Assembly (NCBI GenBank): GCA_963769935.1 | Contig: CAVYNY010000010.1 | Location: forward strand, 480,001 to 544,000 | DNA from: an uncultured delta proteobacterium | GTDB lineage: Bacteria; Desulfobacterota; Desulfobacteria; Desulfobacterales; JAFDCJ01 | Length of the DNA: 64,000 nt | Direction of reading: 5' to 3' | Shown: one piece after another, positions 20,664-45,124 of the stretch | How the letters are laid out: every line of letters begins with the position of its first letter | Position numbering within the stretch: position 1 is the stretch's first letter | Made by a program: the position numbers and the translations under genes | The notes under the pieces: generated by a model | What the model was told of the DNA's origin: nothing | The model's database searches: none | The model's input: the letters and a program-made list of their open reading frames with translations, nothing else

Positions 20664-21062
20664 ATGAATAAACCACTTACAATTTTGGTCGCAGATCGCA
20701 ACTCCCACGTGCGGGAATTTCTGCAGAGAGAGCTAAAAGCGGAAGGCTACGATATCCGGTTGGCTAAATGCGGCCCGGAGGTCCTTAAATGGGCCTACCT
20801 TTTGCAATTCCTTGACCTTATCATTCTTGACCTGGATTTGCCCGACTTGGACGAACAGGCATTATTCAGCAAACTTCAGGACCGCATTCCGGTATTGCCG
20901 ATCGTGATCCATTCTTTTCAGTCGGATGGCGCGAAACGTTCCGTCAACTACGAAAATGCGGTTTTCGTAGAAAAAAGAGGAAACAGCATCGAAAAACTGA
21001 AAAAGGTGGTCAGCGAGCTCCTTGCGTACCGGGCAGCCAGCCAACCGTCAACAGCTAAATGA
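20664..21062 (+). CDS. Stand-alone receiver domain, atypical acidic pocket
   Basis: ILVADRN...LIILDLDLPD...FVEK. Confidence 0.8.
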   Translation: MNKPLTILVADRNSHVREFLQRELKAEGYDIRLAKCGPEVLKWAYLLQFLDLIILDLDLPDLDEQALFSKLQDRIPVLPIVIHSFQSDGAKRSVNYENAVFVEKRGNSIEKLKKVVSELLAYRAASQPSTAK

Positions 21063-23192
21063 CAGACACTTCCAGACCGAAACTTGCCAAGCGTATTGCC
21101 GTGTCCGTCGGTGCCGGAGGTATCCTTTTTCTGATTGCCGGGGCGCTGCTCGGTCTCTGGACCATTCAGGAAATGAAAAAAATCGTGACCGGCCAGTTCA
21201 ATCAGGAGCAGCTGGTCATCGCCCGCACGGTCAAGCAGCGCATCGAAAGAGAGATCAAATTTTTGGCAAAAGAGATCTCGTTGCTGGCGGGGAATATCTC
21301 AGCCGAGCCGTTGGCGCCGGAAAACGGCAATGAGCGCATCCAGCAGAGTTTCGCCCGGGTTCTGGAAAGCGGTGTTTGGAAGATTGAAATAATCGATCCG
21401 GCCGGCGGCCGCCGGCATATATTTATGCCCCATCGGCACTGGACCGCACAGCCCCCGGCCGAGATCGACCCCGATGATATCCCGCTGCCGCAGGGCCTCA
21501 CGACCGGAACGGTTTATATTTCTCCGGTCCGGATCAACGCATCCGGATCGGCGCTGGTCCTGGCGGCACCTTTATCCGCTGAACCCGTCCGGTATCTGGT
21601 TTTTCACATCAACGTTTCATGGCTGCTGGCCCCCTTTTTAAGGGAAATACGTTCCGGCCGAACCGGCTATGTCTGGCTGATCGATCAAACCGGCCGTTTT
21701 CTCTTTCATCCGGACGCCGGTTTCATCGGGAAAAATGCATTTACCGTACGCCGGCAAAAGTATCCGGATGTATCCTTTGTGAAGATCAATTTCATTCAGA
21801 AGGAAAAAATGCTCACCGGCAACGAAGGTACCGGCTGGTATGACTCGGGATGGCACCGGGGCATTACCGGCCCGATTAGAAAGTTGATTGCCTATTGTCC
21901 GGTGGTCATCTGTGAAAAGCCGGCTCAAACGTGGTCGGTGGCGGTGGTCGCACCGGTTTCGGAGATCGAGGGCGCCCTGCGAAAAAGTTCCCTGCAGTTG
22001 TTTATGCTGCAGGGATTGGTGATTGTCTTCATTGTGTCGGGCAGTGCCGCCCTGCTATGGTTTGAGATCCGCTGGTCGCGCCTGCTGGAAAAAAAAGTAT
22101 CCCAGCGTACCGAAGAGTTGAAAAAATCGGAGGAAAAATACCGCTCGCTGGTGGAAAGCGCCGAAGATTTCATTTTTACCGTTGACAACGGCGGTCAATT
22201 TCAATCCATGAACAGTTTTACCGCCAATTTCTTCGGCGGGCATCCGGATGACTTTGTCGGCAAACCTCTGGCGGGTGCATTTTCCGAAAAGATAGCCCAA
22301 AAGCAGCTTAAACTGATCCGCCTGGTGTATCAACACGGCAAGAGTGTCCGGGAAGAATTCGAGATCCAGCTGGAAGACCACCCTATCTGGATCAGCGCCA
22401 ATTTCATGCCCATCAAGAATGACCTCGGAGAAGTCGGTTCGGTTTTATGTATTGCCAGGGACGTCACCGAAAACAAAAATCTGGAAAGACAGCTGGTGAA
22501 TACCGAAAAACTCGCCTCGCTGGGGACGCTGGCCGCCGGGGTTGCCCATGAAGTCAACAATCCTCTGGGGGTGATCCTGGGCTTTACCGATATCTTGATC
22601 CGCAAAGCAGATAAAGACTCGCAGGACTATGAAGACCTTAAGATAATTGAACGGCAGGGATATCACTGCAAGGAGGTGGTCGAAAACCTGTTGAGTTTTG
22701 CCCGCCTGGAAGGAGGCAGCCTGGGACATGCCGATGTCAACGCGTGTCTGGAGGAAATCATCAAAATTGTCCGGCATGTTCTGGAAATGAACCGCATCGA
22801 GCTCGTCGCGCGCCTGCCCGGAGACTTGCCGCCGGCCAGAGCAGATGCGCGCCAGCTGCAGCAGGTGTTTTTAAACCTGATCAACAATGCCGTCGCCGCC
22901 ATGCCGGACGGCGGCACATTGACGATTCAAAACCGCCTTGAAAAAAAACAGCGCAAGAATTGCGGTTCAATTCCGGGATACCGGCTGCGGCATAAAACCG
23001 GCGGATATCGATCACATTTTCGAACCGTTTTTTACCACCAAACCGGAAGGACAGGGAACCGGTTTGGGATTATTCGTCAGCTATGGCATCATCGCCAAAT
23101 ATGGCGGCACCATCGACTGCTACAGCCGCCATAGCGACAACCCGGGCCGACCCTCCGGAACGACGTTTACCGTCAGACTGGTCCCGGTTTGA
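21059..23192 (+). CDS. Cache-PAS sensor histidine kinase (one frameshift at the A8 run 22941-22948)
   Basis: TM-Cache-TM, PAS, AHEVNNPL, N box; G1/F/G2 boxes (DTGCGI, FEPFFTTK, GTGLGL) continue in ORF 22938-23192. Confidence 0.88.
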
Positions 23193-23546: not shown

Positions 23547-24973
23547 ATGAACGGCAGCATTTTAATCGTCGACGACGAAAAAGACATGCTGATTCTTTTG
23601 AAGCGGATTCTCTCTGAAGAAACGCCTTACAAACTGGTCACCGAGAGCGATCCGCGGCAGGCCCTGGAGCGGGTCCGGCAGCGCCATTTCGATGTGGTGC
23701 TCACCGATCTTAAAATGCCGGAAATGGACGGCATTCGGCTGCTGGAGGCGTGCAAGAAAATCAGACCCGAGATTTCGGTAATTATTCTGACCGCCTATGC
23801 CACGATCGAAAATGCGGTGGAAGCCATTAAAAAAGGCGCGCATGATTATATCACCAAACCGTTCCGCCGCGAACGCGTGCTTTTGACCCTTGACAAAGCC
23901 ATGAAATGGCAGGCCATGGTCGACGAGAACCGAACGCTGCGCCAGGCGCTGGCTGAAAGAAACGGGTTTGCATCCCTGGTGGGGTCGACGCCGGTGATGC
24001 AGAATATTTTCGAGCGGATCCATCAGGTCGCGCCCACCATGGGAACCGTGTTGATCACCGGCCCCAGCGGCACCGGCAAGGAACTGGTCGCCCGTGCCAT
24101 TCATCAGCACAGTTTGAGAAGCAAAAAAAAACTGGTTACCGTAAACTGTACCGCCATCCCGGAGCAGGTATTGGAAAGCGAACTTTTCGGCCATGTGAAA
24201 GGGGCCTTTACCGGGGCCTGGCAGGATAAAAAGGGCCTGGTTGAAACGGCGCATGAAGGAACGCTTTTCCTGGACGAAATCGGCGATCTCAGCCTCCAGA
24301 TGCAAACCAAGCTGCTGCGGCTGCTGCAGGAAGGCGAATACAAGCCGGTCGGCGGCGTCACCACCCGGCAGGCCGATCTGCGTTTCATCGCCGCCACCAA
24401 TCATGATTTGAAAGCCGACATCAGGGGGAACCGTTTCCGCGAAGATCTGTACTACCGGCTGAACGTCATCCGATTTGACCTGCCGTCCCTCAAGGAGCGG
24501 CAGCAGGACATCCCGCTGCTGGCCTATCATTTCCTGGAAAAATACGCCCGCCGCAACCAGAAAAATATCCCGTATATTTCACCGGAGGCCATGCAGATTC
24601 TCATATCACAGGAATACCCCGGCAACGTCAGGGAGCTGGAAAACACCATCGAACGCGGCGTCATCTTTTGCCGGTCGGATACCCTGAAAGTCAACGATCT
24701 TCAGCTGGAATACGACCGCAACGAGATTCCGGCGGAATTCAATGAAGACATCACCCAGCTGCCCTTTAGAGAAGCCAAGGATAAAATGACTGACATTTTT
24801 CATCGACTCTATATCCGGAGCCTTCTCTCAAAAAATGCCGGCAATATCAGCAAAGCGGCCGATATTGCCGGAATTCAACGCCAGTATCTTCATCGCCTCA
24901 TGAAGGAGACGGGCATCCGGGCCGAGGATTTCAGGCCCACCGACTATGTTCCATTTCACGGTACCGACATTAA
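23547..24973 (+). CDS. Sigma54-dependent response regulator (NtrC-type REC-AAA-HTH)
   Basis: REC, GPSGTGKE, ESELFGH, GAFTGA, FLDEIG, YPGNVREL, Fis-type HTH; real end estimated at ~24973-24996, annotated ORF reads through to 25550. Confidence 0.9.
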
Positions 24974-26778: not shown

Positions 26779-26889
26779 TAGTAGAACCGGTAAAGACGAA
26801 TCATCGACAGACGGAGTCCAATCGCTGTTCGGATGTGCAAATTCATAAAAAGCGTGAAACCATTAAACCCGATAGAGGAGGCAAACACT

Positions 26890-27930
26890 ATGACAGAAGA
26901 AGTCAAAACCAAAGGTTGGGAGGTAGCCCGGGATCTGGAGGCGAAAAAATCAACCATGTGGGAACGGTTTATGCCGGGGAAAAGACAGCTGATCGCTGCC
27001 GCCTGGGGATTTTCGGCCCTTTTCGCGGTATTTTTGCTGGGGTGCTGGCTGGCCGGCAATCCGTTTGAAGCCACCAAGCGGATTGCTTCGCCATTTGTCG
27101 AAAAAATGGGCTGGATTGGCACCAATGAATGGGGCATTCTCTGGAGCGTGGTATTGGTTGCCATGTTCTTTGAGTTTATGGATGCTTCGGCCGGTATGGG
27201 ATTTGGCACGGCCATCACGCCGCTGCTGCTGCTGATGGGATTTAACCCCAAGCAAATTGTGCCGGTGGTCATGATCCAGCAGGGCGTGGCGGGTCTGGTG
27301 GGGGCCTTTTTGCATCGCGAGTTTGAAAACGTGGAATGGAAGTTCAGTCCCATGTCGGAAACTATCAAACTGTGGCTGTACATCGCCATAACCGGCTGTG
27401 CGTCGGTAGCCCTTTCCATCACCGCCGTCTACGGCATATTTAACGTGGCCAAGATTTGGATCAAACTCTACGTGGCCGTACTGCTGGTGATGATGGGGGT
27501 CGTCTCGCTTTACCAATCGAAAAAAGACCGTCCATATAAGCCCAAAATGATGATCGGCTTTGCGGCCCTGGCAGGCTTTAACAAAGGCGTGGGCGGCGGC
27601 GGCTACGGCCCGGTAGTAACCGTCGGCGGCTTGATTGCCGGCGTGCCGGTCAAAAGCATGCTGGCCGTCACGGCCATATCGGAAGGCACCACCAGCACCT
27701 TCTCGGTCCTGGTCTGGCTGGCGCTGCTGACTAGTGGAGTGACCATCGACTATCTGCTGCTGCCGTCGATGATGCTGGCCACCATGTTCACGGCCGTGGC
27801 CGCTCCCTACACCACCCGGGTTTTTCCCGAAAAGGCCTGGAAGTTTATCGTACCGGTATACTGCTGCATTCTCGCCGCCTACACGTTTTACAAGGTCATA
27901 CCCGACATTGTCTCGAAGCTCGCCGGATGA
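26890..27930 (+). CDS. TSUP (TauE/SafE) family transporter
   Basis: DASAGMGFGTAITPLL and FNKGVGGGGYGPVV repeats, multiple TMs; RBS gaggag. Confidence 0.88.
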   Translation: MTEEVKTKGWEVARDLEAKKSTMWERFMPGKRQLIAAAWGFSALFAVFLLGCWLAGNPFEATKRIASPFVEKMGWIGTNEWGILWSVVLVAMFFEFMDASAGMGFGTAITPLLLLMGFNPKQIVPVVMIQQGVAGLVGAFLHREFENVEWKFSPMSETIKLWLYIAITGCASVALSITAVYGIFNVAKIWIKLYVAVLLVMMGVVSLYQSKKDRPYKPKMMIGFAALAGFNKGVGGGGYGPVVTVGGLIAGVPVKSMLAVTAISEGTTSTFSVLVWLALLTSGVTIDYLLLPSMMLATMFTAVAAPYTTRVFPEKAWKFIVPVYCCILAAYTFYKVIPDIVSKLAG

Positions 27931-28041
27931 TCGAAAACATCCGACGCTCACCGGGTAGCTCCTTGGACCGGGGCTGCGGAAAATTCCGCCGCCCCGGTTA
28001 CGCCGGTTTATGAACGACAACAGATAGACGGGAGATCGATT

Positions 28042-28581
28042 ATGACCATTCAACAAACATCTGCAGCACTTTACTCCGGTGGGCAAACCTATCGGCGTAC
28101 CTACGGTCAACAGCGATTGGTTCATTTCGGCATCACCATGATCGTTATGGGTGTCTGTTTCTTTTTGTATTACCTGGGTTTTTTCGGCGGGGTGGACGGC
28201 CCCCTGAATCCGGCGCAATTGGGTGAACATCTGTCGGCTTCAGGCGTGTCCAGGGTGCACCTCATCATCGTGACTGCCGTTTTGATGCTTCTCTCCCTGG
28301 GCTGGAATTGGATCTTCAACCTGGCCTGTCTCCGGCTCGGCAGGCGCTTGACCTGCAGCCGGGCTGACGGACAAGGCGGTATCTGCGGCGGACCAGTCAG
28401 ACGGCAGGCGGCGGTACCGCAGGCAAAAAACAGCAATCGTAGCCTGCGCTATGTATGCACCCACGGTCACACGCTGCCGAAGGCCCACTTCCACCCAATT
28501 AAAAAAGGCACCATCAGCCATATGCTCTGGGTGACATCGCTGATATTTACCGTCGTTGTTTTGTACGCGTCCTATTTCTAA
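28042..28581 (+). CDS. Hypothetical membrane protein with Cys/His cluster
   Basis: 3 hydrophobic segments; LTC...ICGG...YVCTHGH...AHFH; RBS ggag. Confidence 0.65.
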   Translation: MTIQQTSAALYSGGQTYRRTYGQQRLVHFGITMIVMGVCFFLYYLGFFGGVDGPLNPAQLGEHLSASGVSRVHLIIVTAVLMLLSLGWNWIFNLACLRLGRRLTCSRADGQGGICGGPVRRQAAVPQAKNSNRSLRYVCTHGHTLPKAHFHPIKKGTISHMLWVTSLIFTVVVLYASYF

Positions 28582-28813: not shown

Positions 28814-29657
28814 GTGAACACCAAAGTCCGTGTCCTGCTGGTTGATGATGAGGAGTCCTTTGCAGTGAACCTGAGCCGGCTCCTGCAAAACAGGAACTTT
28901 GAAGTGGTCACCGCCTTCGATGGGTTTCAGGCACTCGAGGCTGTCCGCAGCGCAGACGCCTTCGACGTCGCGGTGCTGGACGTCAAAATGCCCGGCATGG
29001 ACGGCACGGCAACCTTGAAAGCGATTAAAAAACAGTCCCCCCAGACCGAAATCATCATGCTGACCGGCCACGCGACGTTGAAATCCGGCATTCAGGCCAT
29101 CCGGGAAGGTGCCTTCGATTATCTCATGAAACCCTGCGACATCGAAGATCTGGCGACGAAGATACGCGAAGCATATGATGTCGAAACCATCAGACGGCAT
29201 CCGGTACTGTGGCCGCGCAACAAAGTCGAAGAAATCATCTGCTGCGCCTTTGAGCGGTTGGACCCGGATGCCCGGCTGGCGGAGGCGCTGGAGGTTTTTA
29301 AACCGGAAAACGGCACGCGGACGTCGGAAACGGCCTATATCCTGGACAACCAGGACCGGCTGCTGGGGTTCATTACCCGGCGGGATCTGATGGAGGCCGC
29401 CCGGGAAACCGAGCCCGGAATTTTCGTTAACCTGGAACGCCTTGCGTGAAAACCCCCATTGGCTCCCTCCCAAGAGACTGCGGGACGTTATGCACACCCG
29501 GCTTTTCCATTGCCGGCCGGATGAACGCCTCTCGGATGTTGCCTACCAGATGATCACCAAAAGGTATCGAACCATGCCGGTTGTCGATCAGGGCAAGGTT
29601 GTGGGCGTTGTCAGGCTGCAGGATATCTTTCTACACCTGGAGCATGAAATCGAGTAG
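28814..29657 (+). CDS. Receiver + CBS-pair protein (frameshift near 29440)
   Basis: LLVDDEE...LDVKMPG...LTGH...LMKP, then CBS motifs split over ORFs 28814-29449 and 29442-29657. Confidence 0.82.
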
Positions 29658-29763: not shown

Positions 29764-31456
29764 ATGGATGAATTTCTGAATATACGCTGTCCCAGGAGCG
29801 CTCCGGCGATTTTCCTTATTTTCGCCGCACATGGAATACCGTGGTCGTCACGCTGCTGGCCGCGGCCTTTGTACCGCTGATCATCATCGGCGGCGGCAAT
29901 GTATTCCTATCTCACTTGGGTTATCAAGCAAAAGACTGTTGCCACCCTGCGGGTGGATGCGCTCGATCTCAAGAATGCGGTCGATCAATTTCTGGCGGAA
30001 CGGACCATGGATCTGAAGCTGATATCCGAAAATATCGGGTCTGCGCAGCCTGCGCGATCCGCAGACCCTGCAAAATGTCTTTCACTCCCTGCAGCAGCAG
30101 TTGCCCTGCTATACGGACCTGGGGGTCATCGATGATCAGGGCCGTCATCTGGCCTATGCGGGCCCTTATGATCTTTTAGGGAAAAATTACCGGCAGGCCG
30201 ACTGGTTTGAAATCGCAATGGCCCGCGGCGTATACATCAGCGATGTCTATTTGGGATACCGCAATACCCCCCACTTCGTCATCGCCGTCAAAGCAGGCCG
30301 GCAGTGACGGCGCCTGGCTTCTGCGCGCTACGATCGACACCGATTATTTCCATCGCATGATCGCCGCCATCGCTGAAAAGAGCAATGCCGACGCCTATCT
30401 CGTAAATCGCCGGGGTGTCTATCAGAGCAGGCCCCGTTCGACCGGACAGTTAATGGAGCAGTCCCGGTTTACGGATCTCAAGCCGTTTGAGGGAGTCGCA
30501 TTTCGAGAAGCAAACGATCATCTGTTGATGACCGTCTGGCTGGAAAAGGTCCCCTGGCTGTGTGCCGTCCGGATGGATCGCAAAAATGCCTTCGCCGAGC
30601 TCAGGCGCATTCGTATGATCGGCATCTGGGTCTTCGTGCTGGCAGCCATCCTGATCGTGATGAGCGTGCTGCTGACCACCAACCATCTGGTGTCCCGCCT
30701 GGAAGTCAAACGCCGCAGCATCCGCTTTCTGGACCGCCAGCTGCGCCAGTCCAATCGTCTGGCGTCGGCCATGGAATTGGCCCTCGGATTTTTCCGGGAA
30801 ATAAAAGACGGCCTGGCAAATATCGATGCGGCCGCCATGAACATCCAGGATCTGTGCCGCAGCAATCCGGCGGCGGAAATAACCGAGAGCCTCTCGCAGC
30901 TTCGATCGGAAACGGCCCGCGCCGCAGGTCCATCGATAAATTCCTGCGGTTCACCCGCAGCACCGAACCGATCGTCAAGGCGCTGAATGTAAACGAAGTG
31001 CTCGATGATTTGGTCGAATTGGTGGACAAAGAACTGCGCTTCAACAACATCCGGCTGGTCCGCAACTATGAAGATTCCCTGCCTGCCATCCGCAGCGATC
31101 CTGCCGGCCTGCGCCAGGTCTTTCAGAATCTGATCCTCAATGCCGTGGCCGCCATTCAGACCAACGGCGAAATCTCGCTGACAACCCGGCGACAGGCCGA
31201 CAATGTGGTGGTAGCGGTCGCCGATAGCGGTCCGGGAATCGCCGCGGAGCATCTTGCAAAGATCTTTGAACCGCTGTTTACCACCAAGCCCGGCGGAACG
31301 GGTTTAGGGCTGCCGATCTGCGCCGACATCCTAAAGCGTTTGGGCGGGCGGATTGCCGTGCACAATCCGCCGGAAGGCGGAGCCTGCTTTGTGGTAAGTC
31401 TTCCGATTCAATTCAACCCTCACCCGGATGAATTGGAACCAAAAAGAACAAATTAA
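29764..31456 (+). CDS. Cache sensor kinase-like protein with degenerate H-box (multiple frameshifts)
   Basis: Pieces in ORFs 29841, 29899, 30101, 30207 and 30560 align with paralogues 34832 and 37375 (DLGVID..GRHLAY.GPY, YISDVYLGYR..PHF, LRATID); HATPase boxes intact; start approximate. Confidence 0.75.
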
Positions 31457-31490
31457 TCACGAAAGCACGAAAGGACGAAAACACGAAAAA
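31453..31490. repeat. CACGAAA-type short repeat element
   Basis: ttaatcacgaaagcacgaaag identical to the reverse complement of 43565-43585. Confidence 0.65.
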
Positions 31491-31579
31491 GCAGTAATAT
31501 TTTCCACCGCAGAGGCGCCAGGCTTCGCTAAAGCTAAGACCCGACAAGCAGAGATCGCAAAGAGTGATTATTTTTTATT

Positions 31580-34024
31580 ATGATAAAACGGGAAAACCTC
31601 AAACAAGCCATCGAAGAAATTTCAAAGCGCGATCCCGCCATCGGGTATTCCCTGGATGCCATGCTCGGGGCGGGCGAAATCGGAGTGCCGGATAAAACCG
31701 ACTGCCGGCAATGGGGCCGACGAGCTTTTTTTTCTCTTCAAAGGTCAGCCCGTTTTTGTCAAAAAATATCTGTATTTCCATGAAGGTACCGTCCCGCTCG
31801 AACAGCAGCTGCTCATCAAATACGGGGAGCTGGTTAAAAAGCAGGAACTGCAGGACAAGCTCCGGCCCCGTCGATTACCTCCGGGCCGCCGGCCAGATCC
31901 ACCGGGCCGCGCTCAAATTGATGGTCGGCCATGAGATCGATTATGCCGTCACCCGCCTCCGCAGCGAGCTGGCACAACTAAAACCCGGCAGCGATGAGCT
32001 TGCCGATCGACCCGATGCCCCTGAAAACGGATCGGCCGCTCAGTTTGCGCACCGCCGCCGTATTCAGGAACTCAGCGGCCTGATCACTTTGCTGGAAACC
32101 GTCCAAGAAGATGACCGGCCGCTGGCGGAGTACCTGAAAGACAGCCGCACCGCGGGCGATTCGACATTCCAGGCGGATGGGGTGGTCGAATATGTCACCC
32201 CGGCCCGGTTCATGCCATTTCCCTTTTGTCTGGATGCCCTGCTGCAGGTGGCCGCCATGAACCTGGAATTCTTTCATGTCCGCTTTCTTTTAGCCTGTTT
32301 AATCGGATCAAACCGGCCAGCGGCTGTATGCCTGTGTGGCTGCAGGAAAAATTCTGGGTTTGATCTTTCTTGAGCCGAAAACAAATTTTTTAAAGCAAAG
32401 TCTGGAAATAAAATATCTGGCGACCGTCGGCGGGCTCGCCCAAATTCTGCCGGATCCGCGGTTGAAAAAAGTTCGCGGGGTGGGCACCTTTCTGGTGGCC
32501 GGCGCCTGGCTGCTCTGGAAAAGCTGTTTTCCGAAGGCCGGGGAATTGGTCCTGAGCGCCGAAATCGGCGCAACACGCTTTTACCGTTCCATCGGGTTTC
32601 GTCGGCGCCGCCCCTTCGAATACGTACTCGAGGCGCCCGCGGGATTTTTGCTGCGCAGTATTCTGGTGATGGTCAACAACCTGTGCCAATCCCGCCGCCG
32701 GGCTGCTCGCTGCGACCGGCGGCCTGATTGAATCACAGATCAGGCGCCTGCACAAAAAGCTCTCATGGACACGCGGCGCAGGTCCAGCGCAAGATGATTA
32801 TTTGCTTTTTTAAAAGTTTGTCTGCAATCCCGCACCCACCCGATTTTAGCCGACCAGTTGGTTCGGCATCTGTTCAAATACCGCACTAAATTACCCGAAG
32901 CCGCGGACCTGCTGGATCTGGCGGCCGAGTCCGGATGGGTGCGATTGTATCGGGCGCCGCCGCCCAACGTTCAACCGCTGCTGGTGGCCTGCAGCGATCA
33001 GTTCACCCGCCACCTGGAAAACATTTTTCATCTGGAAAACGCCAAACGCATCCAGGCCGTTCAATCCGTCATGCAGCACCCGACGCTGGCCGGTAAATGG
33101 CAGGCGGTTGAACCGCGTCCGGCCTCAATCGAAGAGCTTGCCTGGGTGCACACGGCCGGGCACATCGAACGTATCGCAGCGACTGCCGGCAAGCCCCTGA
33201 GCGTCCTGGACCCGGACACCCAAACCAGCGAGCAATCCTATGAAGTTGCGCTTCTGGCAGTCGGCGCAGTATTCAATCTTCTGGATGCCGTCTGCTCCGG
33301 CAGCGGAAAACGAGGATTTGCATGCATCCGCCCTCCGGGGCACCATGCCGAACCGGACAGGGCCATGGGATTTTGTCTGTTTAACAACGCGGCCCTGGGC
33401 GCCCGTTACCTGCAACGGCGCTGCGCCGTCGAGCGCGTCATGATTGTCGACATCGATGCCCATCACGGCAACGGCACCCAGGCCGCGTTTTATGACAACA
33501 ATGACGTCCTTTATGTGTCCCTGCATCGATTTCCGGGATTTCCGGGCACCGGCAATTTCGGCGAGGTCGGCTGCGGCCGGGGCGAAGGCTTCACGGTCAA
33601 TGTGCCGCTCGGCGGCGGTCAGGTCGACCGAGACTTTATCGAAATCATTTACTACCTGGTCCACCCGCTGGCGCGTCACTTTAAGCCCGGCATGATCTTG
33701 GTGTCCTGCGGCTTTGATCTTTACCTGCACGACCGCCTGGGGGGCATGCGCGCCACACCCGAAGGTTATGCCCTGCTGAGCGCGCTGCTGGTGGACATTG
33801 CCGAGCAGGTATGCGGCGGGCGCATCCTTTTTATCCTGGAAGGCGGCTACAGCATCAAGGGAATTCAAGAGTGCGGCCTGTACCTGCTGCAGGAGCTTTG
33901 CAGTGTGTCGCCCGTCCGCCGCGACAAGCTGAATCAAATCATCACCAATCCCCGGCCCAAACTCGCGCCATTAATAAAAGCCATCCAGATCCAGCAGCGC
34001 TACTGGCCGACCTTGATCGCTTGA
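31580..34024 (+). CDS. Putative ~810-aa fusion: unknown N-domain + GNAT acetyltransferase + Zn-dependent deacetylase (HDAC family), frameshifted
   Basis: Successive ORF pieces 31580, 31656, 31711, 32336 and 32858; GNAT motifs LEIKYLAT, VRGVGTFLV, ATRFYRSIGF; no good independent start for the HDAC part. Confidence 0.6.
32858..34024 (+). CDS. Histone deacetylase family domain (intact reading frame)
   Basis: RPPGHHAE, GFCLFNN, DIDAHHGNGT, SLH, FPGTG, NVPL, GFDLYLHD, LEGGY. Confidence 0.93.
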   Translation: MVRHLFKYRTKLPEAADLLDLAAESGWVRLYRAPPPNVQPLLVACSDQFTRHLENIFHLENAKRIQAVQSVMQHPTLAGKWQAVEPRPASIEELAWVHTAGHIERIAATAGKPLSVLDPDTQTSEQSYEVALLAVGAVFNLLDAVCSGSGKRGFACIRPPGHHAEPDRAMGFCLFNNAALGARYLQRRCAVERVMIVDIDAHHGNGTQAAFYDNNDVLYVSLHRFPGFPGTGNFGEVGCGRGEGFTVNVPLGGGQVDRDFIEIIYYLVHPLARHFKPGMILVSCGFDLYLHDRLGGMRATPEGYALLSALLVDIAEQVCGGRILFILEGGYSIKGIQECGLYLLQELCSVSPVRRDKLNQIITNPRPKLAPLIKAIQIQQRYWPTLIA

Positions 34025-34163
34025 AGTGAAAACTTTAATACCCAGCCCTGTAACCTGCCGGTTGACACCCCTCCCATTGCCTTTGACGGGAATCTGAAAA
34101 AAAACTGAAATAATTCTAGTCTGTTATCCTGAATTTAGATCAATTCCCCCGACCGAAAAGTAA

Positions 34164-34179
34164 TGGCATGGTTCTTGAG
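34164..34179 (+). promoter_or_regulatory. Sigma54 promoter (variant -12)
   Basis: TGGCAT-ggttc-TTGAG; class B site 115 nt upstream. Confidence 0.55.
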
Positions 34180-34239
34180 TAAGTAGAGGATGACCGGCAG
34201 CGGCCTTGGCGTACAAGTGAGCTCTTATGGCCGGGTTGA

Positions 34240-34811
34240 GGTTTCAGGTGTCAGCGCCGCCGCCGGCCAAAACAACGGCCGGTCTGATCGAAAAAGAAAC
34301 ATAATAGTTCACCGCAGAGCCCGCCGAGAAAGAAAAGTTAAATTAATCTCTGCGCTCTCTGCGGTGAGACACTTCGTAAAATTGGCATCGAATTTAAGGA
34401 AGTTTCATATGAGGTGTCAGCAGCTCCGCTGACTGCCGAAGCGGCCAGTTTGTCGAGGAGGAGACTTAAATTTTCACCGCAGAGAAAGACTGAAAAGGCA
34501 TTGCTGGCAGGTCGAAAAATGAAAGATGTTAATGGCTGGTGGGAGTGGTTTTTAACCACGATTTCCGATGTTGACCCGACCGAGTTAATCGCGGTTGCAT
34601 CCAGCCCGTAGGGCTTACGCCCCGGAGTGAAAACCGCTCCCACAAGATCCTTAAACGGTCATCAGGTTCCAAAAAATTAGTGGTTCTTTCCATTTTTAAA
34701 GGGAAGTTAGAGGGGATTTCGTCTTCGATCAAACTGGCCGCTTTTCTGGCCAGAGGCGGAGCTGACACCCGAAACCTGACACCTGACACCTTAACCCTGA
34801 AACCTGAAACC
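34240..34811. repeat. Nested intergenic repeat mosaic
   Basis: Inverted ~60-bp copies at 34240-34300 and 34718-34811, a third copy at ~34413, (ctgacac/ctgaaac)n heptamers, CACCGCAGAG hairpin, REP-like gtgggagtggtttt...aaaaccgctcccac. Confidence 0.75.
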
Positions 34812-34831: not shown

Positions 34832-36628
34832 ATGGAAACCCGGACAGCAACCCCCAACGGCAGCCGCGAGAGCAGCACCGGTGAGTGGCGCAAGAAATAC
34901 TACTCGCGTTTGTTCCGCAAATTCGTTCTTTTAACCGTCTTCTGTTCGCTGACGCCGCTGCTGCTGGTGGGGTGGGGCATAAACATTTATTACACGCGCT
35001 TCGCCAGGGAGCGCATGCTGAATGATCTGCAGACCGAGGTAGCACACCATCGTAAAATTATCGAACTTTTTTTAGCCGAGCACAGCTCAAAGCTGCGTCT
35101 TATCGCCCATTCCCATTCGAAAATCGATTTAACCCGGATTTCGAACCTCACCGGCATTTTCGATATGATCAACCGCGATTACTGGGCCATCACCGACCTG
35201 GGCATCATCGATGCCGACGGCCGGCATCTGGCCTACATCGGTCCCTATGATTTAATGAGCAAAAATTATTCCGAGGCGGTCTGGTTCAAAGAGGTCATGC
35301 AAAAGGATATCTACATCAGCGACATGTTCATGGGATTCCGCCAGGAGCCTCATTTTATCATCGCGGTAACGCGCCTGGAAAACGGTGCCAAGTGGATTTT
35401 ACGCGCCACCGTCAATACGGAGGTCTTTCGCTCCCTGGTCGAAAATGTCCGCATCGGAAAAACCGGTCAAGTGTACCTGCTCAACCGCGAAGGCTATTTT
35501 CAAACCACTCCTCGCTTCCAGGGAAAAATAATGGAAAAGGCGCCCTACCCCATCGAAGCCTACCAGCCGGGCATGCGCGTCAGAGTTCTGGCAGCGCAAA
35601 ACGGAGACGCCTCCGGAAGCCGGCCGCGTCAAATCGTATGCGAAACATGGCTTGAGAACCCAAAGTGGCTGCTGGTGGTCAGGCAAAATTATGCCGAAGC
35701 TTTCAATGACGTCAATCACGCCAACTATGCCATCCTGATCTTTCTTCACCTCAGCGCACTGACCATTCTGGTGGTCGCGATTCTGATTACCCGGCATATG
35801 ATTTCTGTAATCAAAAATCGCGACCGGGAAGCCGACCAGCTGAGCCGGCAGCTCTTGCAGACAGGAAAGCTGGCGGCTATCGGCCAGCTGTCGGCCGGCG
35901 TGGCGCACGAAATCAACAACCCGCTGGCCATTGTGCTGACCGAAAGGCAGCTTTTGCTGGACGCCGCCGAACGACATCAGATTCAAAGCCGGGAGTTTGA
36001 GATCCAATTTGAAGATTCCATGAACCAAATCGATGTGCAGGTGCAGCGCTGCAAACGCATCACCCACAATTTGCTCAGATTTTCCCGCCGGACGGAATCC
36101 CTTCTGGAAACGGTGGATATCAATCAGTTTATCAGGGAAGTCATCGAGCTGATGGAGCGCGAGGCGCGGGCCGACGGAATTAAATTCCAGGTGGACCTGG
36201 ACGAGTCGCTGCGGCCGTTGGTTTCCGATATTTCCCAGCTTCAGCAGGTTTTTTTAAATATCATTACCAATGCCATTGACGCCCACGACGGCAAACCCTA
36301 CGGTGCCATCCGCATTAAAACCAGGGCCGGCAAAAACAACGACGGGGTGTCGATTTCATTCAGTGACAGCGGTTCGGGCATTGCGCCTGAAAATTTAGAT
36401 AAAATATTTGACCCGTTTTTTACCACCAAACCCGTGGGCAAGGGCACCGGCTTGGGTTTATCGATCTGTTACAGCATCATGAAACAGCTGGGCGGACACA
36501 TTGCCGTGCAAAGTGAAGTCGGCAAGGGATCTGAATTTACGCTGTTTATTCCCGACAATCCGCCCACACAACTACGGGAAGACATGGCCAATGCGCAGGG
36601 AGCGCAGTTGGCGGCAATGTCATTCTAA
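34832..36628 (+). CDS. Cache sensor histidine kinase
   Basis: 2 TMs, [10 protein letters not shown]1/F/G2 boxes. Confidence 0.93.
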
Positions 36629-36640
36629 AGGAGGAACACC

Positions 36641-37099
36641 ATGATAGGATCAAAAATTTTGCTGGTCGATGATGAAGTCGTATTTACCCAGAATATGGCA
36701 AAGCTGCTGTCCAACCGGGGATATGCCGTCACGGTGGTCAACAACGGGGATGCTGCGATTCGAGCACTGGAGGAAAAGGATTTTGACGTGGTGGTGCTGG
36801 ACCTCAAGATGCCCGGCAGGGACGGTATCACGACCCTGAGGGAAATCAAAAAACTCGGTCTGCTCACCCAAACGCTGATTCTGACCGGGCACGGCTCGAT
36901 CGATACCGCCCTGGAGGCGATCAAGATAGGGGCCTATGACTATCTCACCAAGCCGTGTGAAATTGACGAACTCATCGGCAAAATTGAAGGCGCTTGGGAA
37001 AAAAAAGACGGTGAAGTAAAGAAAGACATCCAGGAAAAGATCCAGAAAGTGGTGGAATCGCCCCAGGATGTATTCGACCTGTTTCCGAAGAAAAAATGA
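36641..37099 (+). CDS. Stand-alone response regulator
   Basis: LLVDDE, LDLKMPG, LTGHG, LTKP. Confidence 0.92.
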   Translation: MIGSKILLVDDEVVFTQNMAKLLSNRGYAVTVVNNGDAAIRALEEKDFDVVVLDLKMPGRDGITTLREIKKLGLLTQTLILTGHGSIDTALEAIKIGAYDYLTKPCEIDELIGKIEGAWEKKDGEVKKDIQEKIQKVVESPQDVFDLFPKKK

Positions 37100-42460: not shown

Positions 42461-43363
42461 ATGAGCAAAAAAATTAGAGTTTTGATGGTCGACGATGAGG
42501 AAAAGTTTCGATCGACCACCAAAAAAATTCTCGATCGACGCGGATTCGACACCCTGGTTGCGGCCAGCGGTGAAGAAGCCCTTGAAAAGCTGAAGGAAAG
42601 TCCGGATGTCGTGGTTATGGATGTCAAGATGCCCGGCATGGACGGCCATCAGACGCTTCATGAAATGAAGAAGCGCACCCCCGCCACCCCGGTAATCATG
42701 CTCACCGGCCATGGAGCGCTGCCCTCCGCCAAAGAAGCGCTCGAACAAGGTGCCTTCGATTACCTGACGAAACCCTGCGACATCGATATACTGGCAGCTA
42801 AAATCACCGATGCCTTCCGGCACCGGAAACCGGCCGAAGAAATTAAGGAGAAAACCGTCGCGGATGTCATGATCCCGATAGCGGATTACACCACCGTAAA
42901 TCAGAACAGCACCGTCGGTGAAGCCATTGACAAACTGCGCGAATCATTCTTCTCCCGGGAAGCCACCAGCCGCATTATGGAAACCGGTCACCGCTCCATC
43001 ATGGTATTCGACGACCAGGGGGATGTCATCGGCATCCTGGCCATTATCGATCTGCTCGACGCTGTCATGCCGGGGTATCTCAGCGCGCCCAAGCCTTCGA
43101 CGGCGGACAGCATCCAATATTCGCCCATGTTCTGGAGCGGCATGTTCACCAGAGAGATCCGGAAAATTGCCGCCCAAAAGATTTCCGATGTAATGTCCCC
43201 GGCTCCCCTGACGATCAGCGCCGAAGCCAATCTCATGGAGGCCGCCTATGCCATGGTGGCCAATAAAAAAAGACGCCTGGCAGTTGAGCAGTCCGATAGG
43301 ATCATCGGCATCATCCGGGAGCAGGACCTGTTCTTTGAAATCGATAGAATTCTGCGCGAGTAA
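42461..43363 (+). CDS. Receiver + CBS-pair protein
   Basis: REC motifs, then VADVMIP...ISDVMSP...IGIIREQDL. Confidence 0.9.
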   Translation: MSKKIRVLMVDDEEKFRSTTKKILDRRGFDTLVAASGEEALEKLKESPDVVVMDVKMPGMDGHQTLHEMKKRTPATPVIMLTGHGALPSAKEALEQGAFDYLTKPCDIDILAAKITDAFRHRKPAEEIKEKTVADVMIPIADYTTVNQNSTVGEAIDKLRESFFSREATSRIMETGHRSIMVFDDQGDVIGILAIIDLLDAVMPGYLSAPKPSTADSIQYSPMFWSGMFTREIRKIAAQKISDVMSPAPLTISAEANLMEAAYAMVANKKRRLAVEQSDRIIGIIREQDLFFEIDRILRE

Positions 43364-43453
43364 ACGATCCCGGCCCGACGGGCCGGACTTTGAATTGTCA
43401 ACTAAGGGGCTGTGAAATTAAAATTTTAGAGTGCCGGCTTCCGGCTCGAAAGG

Positions 43454-43585
43454 GTATTGGAGTGATGGAGTACTGGAGTAATGGAAAAAGGCTGGATGTC
43501 TGTTTTTTCAACACGAAAACACGAAATTTAAAAAACACGAAACTTTTATATTCTCTTTTTCGTTCTTTCGTGCTTTCGTGATTAA
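43454..43585. repeat. Octamer repeats (tggagtaa-like) and CACGAAA hairpin element
   Basis: tattggagtgatggagtactggagtaatgg; aacacgaaaacacgaaa...tttcgtgctttcgtg. Confidence 0.65.
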
Positions 43586-43633
43586 TTTCTTTTTTGGTTC
43601 TCCGCCTCCGGCGGATCCAGGTTAGGAGCATTT

Positions 43634-45124
43634 ATGATGTTAGAGCAAAGATCTTTTCCTGTTCTGACGGCCGAAGAAGCTGTTATGCATATCAAAGACG
43701 GCGACGCGGTGGCCTTTAGCGGGTTCACCCCGGCCGGCGCGGCCAAGGCCGTGCCCAAGGCATTGGCCAAACGAGCGCTGCAGGAGCACGCGCTCGGGCG
43801 TCCGTTCAAACTGCGCATCCTGACGGGCGCATCCAGCGGCCAGGAAATCGATGAGGATTTGGCCCGCGCGGAAGCCGTCGTCTGGCGCGGACCGTATCAA
43901 GCCGGCCAGGCCATCCGGCAGCAAATCAACCGGCAGCAGGTGGAATATGTGGATATGCACCTGTCCCATGTTCCCCAAACCATCGCCTTCGGCTTCTTCG
44001 GCCGGATTAATTTCGCCGTGGTGGAAGCCACCGAGATTACCCCCGACGGCCGTGTGTACCTGAGCACCTCCATCGGCGCATCGCCCACCTATCTGCAATA
44101 TGCCGACAAGGTCTTCATCGAAATCAATCGGAGCCAATCGCCTCGGCTGCGGGAAATGGCCGACATTTTTGTCATGCCGCCCCCGCCGCACCGCAATGCC
44201 ATCCCGCTGTTCGATCCGTTGACCCGCATCGGTTGGCCCTATGCCCAGGTGGACCCCAAAAAAGTCATCGGCATCGTCTATAATGATGAACCCGACCGCG
44301 TCGACGAATTCGCGCCGCCCGACGAGCACAGCCGCCAAATCGCGCAGTATGTGGTCGAATTTTTGCTGAGTGAAAAACGGGCCGGTCGGATTCCGGCGGA
44401 TTTCCTGCCCCTGCAGGCCGGGGTCGGCAACGTGGCCAATGCCGTCCTCGGGGCCATCGGCGAACATCCCGACATCCCGCCCTTTAAAATGTATTCCGAG
44501 GTCTATCAGGATGCAATGGCCGACCTGATGGAGGCGGGTAAATTGCAGGGAGCCAGCGCAACGAGCCTGACGCTGACAGCGGCACGTTTGCAAAGAATTA
44601 CGGAGAACTTCGACTTCTTTGCCCCGCGGATTGTTTTGCGGCCGCAGGAAATTTCCAACCACCCGGGAATCATTCGTCGCCTGGGCGTCATTGCGATGAA
44701 CACGGCGCTGGAAATCGATATCTACGGCAACGTGAATTCATCGCATCTATACGGTATGGATGTCATGAACGGCATCGGCGGCAGCGGCGAATTCACCCGC
44801 AACAGCTATCTGTCTATTTTCATGACGCCGTCCATCGCCAAAGACGGGAAGATCTCCAAAATTGTGCCCATGTGTCCCCACATCGACAACAATGAGCATT
44901 CGGTTCAGGTGGTCGTCACGGACCAGGGGCTGGCGGATCTCAGGGGCCTGGGGCCCATGCAGCGGGCCAGGCTAATTATTGAAAAATGCGCTCACCCCCT
45001 TTACCGAGATTATCTGCAGCGCTATATCAAAGAGGCCCGCACCGGTCACATCCGCCACGACCTGACACGCTGCTTCGAACTTCACCGCAATCTCATGGAA
45101 CACGGGACGATGCTGCCGGAGTAG
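43634..45124 (+). CDS. Acetyl-CoA hydrolase/succinate CoA-transferase family
   Basis: SGFTPAG, TGAS, DMHLS, LQAGVGNVANAV, YSEV (catalytic Glu), NGIGGSGEF. Confidence 0.92.
   Translation: MMLEQRSFPVLTAEEAVMHIKDGDAVAFSGFTPAGAAKAVPKALAKRALQEHALGRPFKLRILTGASSGQEIDEDLARAEAVVWRGPYQAGQAIRQQINRQQVEYVDMHLSHVPQTIAFGFFGRINFAVVEATEITPDGRVYLSTSIGASPTYLQYADKVFIEINRSQSPRLREMADIFVMPPPPHRNAIPLFDPLTRIGWPYAQVDPKKVIGIVYNDEPDRVDEFAPPDEHSRQIAQYVVEFLLSEKRAGRIPADFLPLQAGVGNVANAVLGAIGEHPDIPPFKMYSEVYQDAMADLMEAGKLQGASATSLTLTAARLQRITENFDFFAPRIVLRPQEISNHPGIIRRLGVIAMNTALEIDIYGNVNSSHLYGMDVMNGIGGSGEFTRNSYLSIFMTPSIAKDGKISKIVPMCPHIDNNEHSVQVVVTDQGLADLRGLGPMQRARLIIEKCAHPLYRDYLQRYIKEARTGHIRHDLTRCFELHRNLMEHGTMLPE

Follow-up and report, generated by a model that had tools for sequence, protein, structure and literature searches.

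How opposing acetyltransferases and deacetylases are kept in balance has been answered recently for one system, AcuB (2026 papers). The Bacillus acuABC-acsA locus encodes a GNAT, a zinc deacetylase and a CBS-pair protein together (PMC13121692, PMC13039410). Bacterial acetyltransferases have been sorted into five types, none of which is described with a deacetylase in the accessible portion of PMC8556138; according to the same source, type III enzymes carry an N-terminal accessory domain before the GNAT. Here we describe a gene located at 31580..34024 in a 64,000-nucleotide stretch of DNA (referred to as the window) from an uncultured delta proteobacterium of the order Desulfobacterales (assembly GCA_963769935.1, contig CAVYNY010000010.1, positions 480,001 to 544,000). 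It encodes an N-terminal domain, a predicted GNAT domain, a helical linker and a zinc deacetylase in one chain. The part ahead of the deacetylase also occurs as a stand-alone protein and is from now on referred to as the module. All coordinates are window positions, and the gene, its domains and the cluster genes from the sigma-54 activator to the downstream kinase and receiver lie on the plus strand. The system is real and conserved and apparently undescribed; no literature on a GNAT-deacetylase fusion or this cluster was found in a search of mostly non-subscription texts, supplements being outside its scope.

The gene can be read from an ATG at 31580 to its end once six single extra bases are skipped, which lie within 31701..32800 (near 31703, 31857, 32305, 32681, 32754 and 32800) and were placed by frameshift-aware alignment. 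The calculation (2445-6)/3 gives 813 codons including the stop and thus a product of 812 aa, in agreement with the ~810 aa proposed in an earlier, sequence-only reading of the window. The alignment covers the entire gene against two intact proteins of 811 aa (P0076) and 810 aa (P0053). Of 810 aligned columns, 585 and 611 are identical (72-75%), which is beyond chance, and ~810-aa homologues spanning both domains, which such an alignment was expected to reveal, do exist. The earlier reading had counted five ORF fragments following one another by +1 shifts. All shifts are indeed +1, but six extra bases break the gene into seven fragments, two short ones lying between 32681 and 32800. The motifs it named were located in place, namely GLIFL, LEIKYLAT, VRGVGTFLV, ELVLSA and ATRFYRSIGF in frame 2 (32303-32730) and, in the deacetylase, GHH (33338-33346), DxH (33455/33461), the GFD Asp (33716) and the EGGY Tyr (33848). 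Three-frame translation also bore out that the deacetylase frame is open from 32798 with no ATG ahead of the domain.

The six extra bases are most likely assembly errors, since they are missing from independently assembled contigs. Four public runs, each from a different study, provided contigs that were aligned to window 31400-34200; at each of the six sites one base is absent in at least three of the four runs, the remaining run mostly having no coverage there. One X2 contig, with 1259 bases, spans 31954-33216 (1263 bases) and is four bases shorter from GNAT to deacetylase, which restores a single frame. This is an independent contig; run X1 was left out of independent support because it may be the source sample. 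Independent of any mechanism, this copy could instead be a true decaying pseudogene. Eleven indels cluster within 29.4-32.8 kb, exactly in the receiver-CBS gene (one), the pseudokinase gene (four) and the GNAT-encoding gene, with most flanking genes intact: one further kinase at 21-23 kb is frameshifted, and the other neighbors compared as well as rpoB are unbroken. The damaged 3.4 kb segment is also a distinct haplotype, differing from X1 by up to 3-4% (flanks <1%), with silent changes at 9 of 12 substitutions picked from displayed alignment rows. None of 22 same-genus genomes contains a match; the middle fragment matched intact proteins of 789 and 778 aa in 2 of 40 relatives. Decay is opposed by the fact that 10 of the 11 indels are single extra bases and one is a missing base, that the repaired path contains no nonsense codon and that the runs from all four studies lack the extra bases wherever they cover them. 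Long reads that are under-polished typically show such a bias towards insertions, whereas bacterial genomes usually tend towards deletions. We consider it highly probable that the damaged segment represents an under-polished minor haplotype and, with the same confidence, that the organism carries a single gene; a pseudogene is improbable.

The deacetylase domain (32969..34021) is unbroken and matches PF00850 at E 1e-89. Classical deacylases are characterized by a double His, a GFC, an Asp-His-Asp set and the Tyr of an (E/S/G)GGY motif (PMC11532494, section 6). When the cognate domains shorter than 290 aa (four) are left out of the count, 44 remain, and the double His, the GFC, the Asp-His-Asp zinc ligands and the GGY Tyr are found in all of them. 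Its nearest solved structures in a phmmer ranking are HDAC6, HDA15 and HdaH, and the HDAC6 domain is matched at E 1e-65 compared with E 6e-36 for HDAC8. By this likeness and its RPPGHH sequence, the marks on which the assignment is based, the domain fits cluster 1 (class II-like). The cognate deacetylases thus resemble cluster-1 classical deacylases (HdaH, HDAC6-like; PMC11532494) in double His, GFC, Asp-His-Asp, RPP and EGGY, but differ in having a Cys before GFD (42 of 44), mostly DRL in place of DPL, and a tie to the GNAT module. Whether fused or split, they form one clade against eight other deacetylases of these genomes (SH-aLRT 100, quick tree). The words 'fused' and 'Desulf' are absent from the main text of PMC11532494, whose supplementary sequence lists may include members. 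Two other assignments were rejected. The AcuC type (class I-like, cluster 2c) does not agree with HDAC6 being closer than HDAC8, a comparison that did not include the AcuC sequence itself. An HDAC10-type polyamine deacetylase would require the Glu gatekeeper (PEG motif), which marks polyamine deacetylases (PMC11532494); among the 44 domains this position is Leu in 42, Ile in one and unmatched in one, with Glu in none of the 43 matched sequences.

The middle segment, 32188..32638, is predicted to be a GNAT domain, its boundaries being mapped from residues 188-337 of the homologue P0009. An AlphaFold2 model of P0009 based on a 70-row alignment of stand-alone modules reached a pTM of 0.84. Residues 188-336 match GNAT chains at Z 11-12.4 with an rmsd of 2.4-3.6 Å over 119-159 residues, the top 25 chains of the fold search are all GNAT folds and the best Foldseek E is 1.3e-3. 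By this model the segment is predicted to belong to the GNAT superfamily fold, as the sequence-only reading had suggested. TacT/AtaT toxins, RimJ, the Pat GNAT bound to Acs and Ard1 are tied among the leading rows, so the GNAT fold names no substrate. A TacT/AtaT toxin was rejected as a candidate: the GNAT lies within a protein of 430-810 aa flanked directly by pseudokinase and deacetylase, whereas these toxins are small stand-alone GNATs with an adjacent antitoxin.

The acetyl-CoA pyrophosphate loop R-G-V-G-T (32474..32488) contains two invariant glycines, G284 and G286 (155/155 full-length sequences). The motif B region E-I-G-A-T-R-F-Y-R-S-I-G-F (32561..32599) holds a candidate general-acid Tyr (32582-32584), which is present in 155/155 sequences and, by analogy with GNAT mechanisms, presumably catalytic; two Glu residues are kept in 154/155 and 152/155. 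The claim of a complete GNAT motif set did not hold up, as the window GNAT scores 15.9 bits against Pfam (E 0.013) where the cut-off is 23.6, and stays below the curated thresholds of PF00583, PF13508 and PF13673; PF13673 is matched at E up to 0.1 by 49 of 70 members. Motif A has the consensus Arg/Gln-x-x-Gly-x-Gly/Ala (PMC8556138). Its first position is here mostly Pro, Val, Ala or Lys, and a Lys/Arg directly precedes the first Gly in 150/155 sequences.

Between GNAT and deacetylase lies a five-helix domain of ~100 aa (32639..32935) that had been overlooked before. It holds three of the six extra bases, forms the protein C-terminus in split forms, has no family match and is the least conserved part of the protein (mean identity 19-31%). 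The N-terminal region (31580..32187), previously put at ~250 aa, comprises ~200 aa because the GNAT fold begins at ~32188 and takes in MNLEFFHVRFLL helices. It consists of a conserved core of roughly residues 1-125 followed by a variable linker and one helix. No fold match was obtained for it: there is no Pfam match, residues 1-190 gave no usable Atlas hit, and the matches of the wide fold search with the module model were taken up by the GNAT. The type III acetyltransferases also have an accessory domain ahead of the GNAT; the cAMP, ACT and Rossmann families known there are not matched by this N-domain in Pfam or the Atlas, and a model of the N-terminal fragment P0170, folded without an alignment, reached a pLDDT of only 42.

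A search with residues 1-430 returned 132 proteins (lengths of 433-1381 covered). The best 120 of these comprise 41 proteins with a deacetylase, 77 stand-alone modules of 433-468 aa, one PilZ fusion and one cut-off sequence. Homologues with GNAT and deacetylase as separate genes had been named as a finding that would count against the fusion; those 77 are of this kind, but with the deacetylase as next gene wherever the flanking DNA was available. At 52 loci, 25 modules are fused, 22 have a separate deacetylase gene immediately downstream and five lack it; in four of these five the contig ends there or close by, and the fifth (L045) retains a short remnant. Directly after the module, a deacetylase is found at 58/58 loci, one being the remnant. 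Pairing is thus obligate and fusion optional. Each split deacetylase begins at the domain boundary with a start codon of its own, often overlapping the preceding stop by 22 bases, which marks these as real genes. The proposed single, bifunctional-looking GNAT-HDAC polypeptide stands for many families, in which intact homologues of 750-815 aa occur, but not for the many homologues encoded as separate genes. Among 401 genomes sampled from the order, 42 contain the module (~32 fused, 9 split and 1 fragment, judged by open-frame length); across the phylum it was detected in 3 of 401. Most homologue records are titled as metagenome-assembled genomes of Desulfobacterales, Desulfobacteraceae or deltaproteobacteria. 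Quick trees require 3-4 changes between fusion and fission, and a single split origin is not rejected (p-AU 0.48). Fused forms prevail on the deep branches, but support there is poor and we claim no direction.

The family has escaped annotation under any name of its own. Database entries are called 'histone deacetylase' or 'hypothetical', NCBIfam holds no family for the fusion or the module, and a module profile searched against sequences of solved structures gave a best E of 0.18. The whole module matched its own unnamed Atlas cluster and small GNAT-like clusters. A HMMER search of 1.8 billion representatives yielded 105 matches, apparently all from the same family or fragments of it, and no distant bridge. 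One single sequence, P0098, has a PilZ domain ahead of the module and no deacetylase, hinting at a possible c-di-GMP input in one lineage. L045 is a decaying copy: its pseudokinase is fragmented, the module is intact, the deacetylase is a short remnant and the other cluster genes are absent, and a second copy of that genome lies in L043. A second deacetylase-GNAT fusion of 749 aa (L059) is encoded elsewhere in the same genome (contig C13, 964-3213, minus strand) next to an ATP-grasp-like gene. It comprises an N-terminal GNAT-like region, a deacetylase (PF00850, E 8e-77) and a canonical C-terminal GNAT, and its N-terminal part was found in 8 of 41 related genomes. It is unrelated to the module (hhalign probability 0.15%) and has different neighbors, so the pairing of deacetylase and GNAT alone is not unique and such fusions arose more than once.

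Neighboring genes were counted over 64 non-identical loci, which are kin rather than independent and mostly have <=10 kb of flank. Directly before the module, 55 of 58 loci encode a dCache sensor kinase, in the window at 29766..31456 (start approximate, four indels), where an Arg near 30795 replaces the H-box His. The missing phospho-histidine, overlooked in the sequence-only reading, is a general feature: the H-box His is absent in 46 of 47 upstream kinases covering the position, with the N, G1, F and G2 boxes kept, and present in 47/47 other kinases of the same loci. A profile of this pseudokinase matched at E <1e-28 in 33 of 401 genomes (next 3e-22), in all 33 beside the module. Pseudokinase frames of ~340-365 aa in L069, L074, L077 and L040 have no dCache sensor and keep the cytoplasmic part. 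Complex prediction with two cytoplasmic pseudokinase copies and one module, all from L010 and each with its own alignment, gave an ipSAE of 0.38 (0.37-0.39), whereas three controls scored 0.00-0.01; at least 80% of contacts recur between runs, and the partner pLDDT is 76. In calibration, 18 of 157 solved complexes passed with a score of 0.60 or under, as did both of the 2 passing mismatches (of 215). The prediction weakly suggests that pseudokinase and module touch, and it raises the odds modestly because the pair was chosen beforehand from adjacency, with co-occurrence pointing the same way.

Further upstream, 46 of 47 loci encode a receiver-CBS-CBS protein (28814..29657, phospho-acceptor Asp intact, extra base near 29412). 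A TauE-family transporter (within 26845..28581) is found upstream at 37/38 loci and, between the two, a small membrane protein with a conserved Cys/His pattern and no Pfam family (28042-28581) at 34/38. The gene is followed by an intact dCache histidine kinase that is paralogous to the pseudokinase, and by a receiver consisting of a single domain (34832..37099); the kinase is directly downstream at 39 of 50 loci. A sigma-54 activator composed of receiver, AAA+ and HTH (23547..24950, end approximate) is present upstream at 19/25. The dCache-PAS kinase ahead of the activator (21059-23189) has one frameshift near 22940. A DASS transporter occurs at 6/37 loci, a PEP-synthase-like gene at 7/37 and AcsA at 8 of the 41 loci with 6 kb downstream. 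Window 42461-45121 encodes a second receiver-CBS-CBS protein, together with a succinate CoA transferase scoring above the TIGR03458 cut-off, after DASS transporter and Yip1 genes. Short intergenic repeats flank the gene itself (31435-31495 and 34296-34365); counting matches of 25 bases or more, the first recurs 73 times on 20 contigs of the genome and the second 77 times on 18, and every run covers both at very high depth. They are likely REP- or MITE-like. A promoter and terminator scan gave no excess over shuffled sequences, and RNA run X20, which matches parts of the upstream genes at only 88% likeness, was not taken as expression evidence.

A mechanism has to start from what was observed: relatives read the gene in a single frame, the catalytic site of the deacetylase is intact, GNAT and deacetylase are invariably paired, the upstream kinase has lost its histidine, and this pseudokinase strictly co-occurs with the module. 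It appears reasonably probable that module and deacetylase form an active writer/eraser pair for protein lysines. The writer activity on protein lysines, the step that biases it and its targets are what we infer. The predicted GNAT would write and the zinc deacetylase would erase acetyl groups on protein lysines, with direct binding to the histidine-less sensor kinase setting the switch. Binding of the membrane pseudokinase would bias writing versus erasing and so avoid a futile acetyl-CoA cycle. The receiver-CBS-CBS protein may read phosphorylation together with adenylate charge, and the targets could be enzymes of carboxylate uptake and activation, e.g. AMP-forming acyl-CoA synthetases; an acetyl-CoA synthetase, whose 11 full-length copies contain the motif P-K-T-R-S-G-K, adjoins 13 loci. 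As a whole, including control by the pseudokinase, this sensor-controlled reversible protein-lysine acetylation switch, which would allow sulfate-reducing bacteria to turn acetylation on and off in response to outside signals, is put forward tentatively. The direction we favor is the reverse of that suggested by the sequence-only reading, in which acyl-CoA status is passed to two-component signalling.

Several points weigh against such a switch. The GNAT and deacetylase activities are predicted ones; all 70 members scanned stay below the Pfam GNAT cut-offs (best E 0.0009), the consensus motif A Arg/Gln ahead of G-x-G is missing, and the fold search ties tRNA-acetylating toxins, N-terminal acetylases, small-molecule acetylases and Pat. 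The score of the predicted complex is weak and the job was unlike the calibration set of the tool. Co-occurrence among kin is not independent evidence, and in one genus (L066, L067, L070) the fusion directly follows receiver-CBS-CBS with no pseudokinase, which is thus not required. Where the pseudokinase is lost, a comparison made to detect relaxed selection on the N-domain gave N/GNAT identity ratios of 0.77-0.82, with 0.76-1.06 at the other loci. AcsA lies beside none of the fused loci examined and only beside related split-type ones, and the acsA of the window genome is on another contig (C17). A pseudokinase contact would fit either direction of signalling.

An alternative closer to the Bacillus system, in which the pair acts on acyl-CoA synthetases and the receiver-CBS-CBS protein is the switch through phosphorylation and AMP/ATP binding, is somewhat unlikely in our view. 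The pseudokinase would then only tune the phosphorelay, as a phosphatase or as a partner of the intact kinase. The near-constant presence of receiver-CBS-CBS, which directly precedes the fusion where the pseudokinase is lost, agrees with this, as does the finding that in Bacillus the deacetylase AcuC is inhibited by AcuB, a CBS protein to which AMP or Ap4A binds (PMC13121692, PMC13039410). The 13 loci adjoined by AcsA (12 split, 1 cut off) often also have an SfMCT-type lactate transporter. AcuB, however, binds AcuC via its ACT domain (PMC13039410), which the receiver-CBS-CBS neighbor lacks, and the second receiver-CBS-CBS gene at 42461 beside the DASS transporter indicates that the architecture is generic in such clusters. 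In L014, L015, L021 and L047, which form one clade, a second, distant deacetylase gene lies on the minus strand past acsA and the SfMCT-type transporter. The window genome itself encodes seven zinc deacetylases and has 56 matches to the AcsA model, many of them other AMP-forming ligases or fragments; together these make up a large pool of possible targets.

The direction of the sequence-only reading appears unlikely. The enzyme would sense acetyl-CoA/CoA and acetylate the TauE transporter or the signalling proteins (receivers, kinases and the sigma-54 activator), so that the two-component circuit would be informed of the metabolic state. It is true that the invariant neighbors are signalling and transport genes rather than metabolic enzymes and that CheY is a known case of receiver acetylation (titles in the reference list of PMC8556138). 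The link to a CoA transferase, on which that reading leaned, is not conserved: within the flanks available, at most 10 kb for most loci, such a gene is nearby at 1 of 64 loci, the window itself, at a distance of 9.6 kb.

Quite unlikely, although in keeping with the divergent motif A, its missing consensus Arg/Gln, the disordered insertion before it and the sub-threshold Pfam scores, is a GNAT that merely binds acyl-CoA or a partner and regulates the deacetylase, leaving the eraser as the sole enzyme. Pseudo-GNAT regulators exist, and one of the PanZ type (4cry) is among the fold matches. Opposed to this, the candidate Tyr and the two Glu are at least 98% conserved down to ~30-40% protein identity. 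Very unlikely is a cycle between acetylated and free forms of a small molecule (polyamine, amino sugar or transported amine) tied to TauE, since the polyamine gatekeeper Glu is absent throughout, RPP is intact here and altered in non-protein specialists, and the deacetylase is far from the APAH-like type of L059, even though TauE is a near-constant neighbor, cluster-1 bacterial deacylases include enzymes with non-protein substrates (both statements on deacylases from PMC11532494) and small-molecule GNATs tie in the fold list.

The sensor-controlled acetylation switch would represent a second, different design for balancing the two activities, placed in one chain or two coupled genes and wired to membrane sensors. 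The cluster occurs in about a tenth of the sampled genomes of the order, whose members account for a large share of organic acid oxidation in marine sediments, and it defines a GNAT family overlooked by annotation. If the pseudokinase contact is true, signals sensed outside the cell could act on acetylation directly. The parts are soluble domains from non-pathogenic bacteria and can be easily tested in vitro.

Compared with acuABC (PMC13121692 and PMC13039410), the likeness lies in the joint encoding of GNAT, zinc deacetylase and CBS-pair protein, with acetyl-CoA synthetase near 13 loci. The differences are that the GNAT here is preceded by a 200-aa N-region, is followed by a helical tail and often shares one chain with the deacetylase, that the deacetylase is class II-like where AcuC is class I-like, that the CBS pair is joined to a receiver where AcuB has an ACT domain, which is lacking here, and that membrane sensors are built in. 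The cluster works like acuABC and yet falls outside it by ACT domain and acsA adjacency.

NifL is reportedly another sensor pseudokinase that acts on its partner, NifA, by direct contact. Control of a partner by direct contact is likewise described for the Caulobacter pseudokinase DivL and CckA (bioRxiv 10.1101/323444). In those pairs the partners are a transcription activator and a kinase/phosphatase, whereas the predicted partner here is an acetylation enzyme. No lysine-acetylation example of opposing activities in one chain was found in the literature searched. In GlnD, GlnE, AceK and RelA/SpoT, opposing activities reside in one chain and are switched by a signal or a partner. The chemistry of these enzymes is different, but a bifunctional enzyme that is flipped by docking on a membrane pseudo-histidine kinase, with acetylation rather than phosphotransfer as output, is a possible though doubtful reading of the locus and would be the acetylation counterpart of GlnD or AceK.

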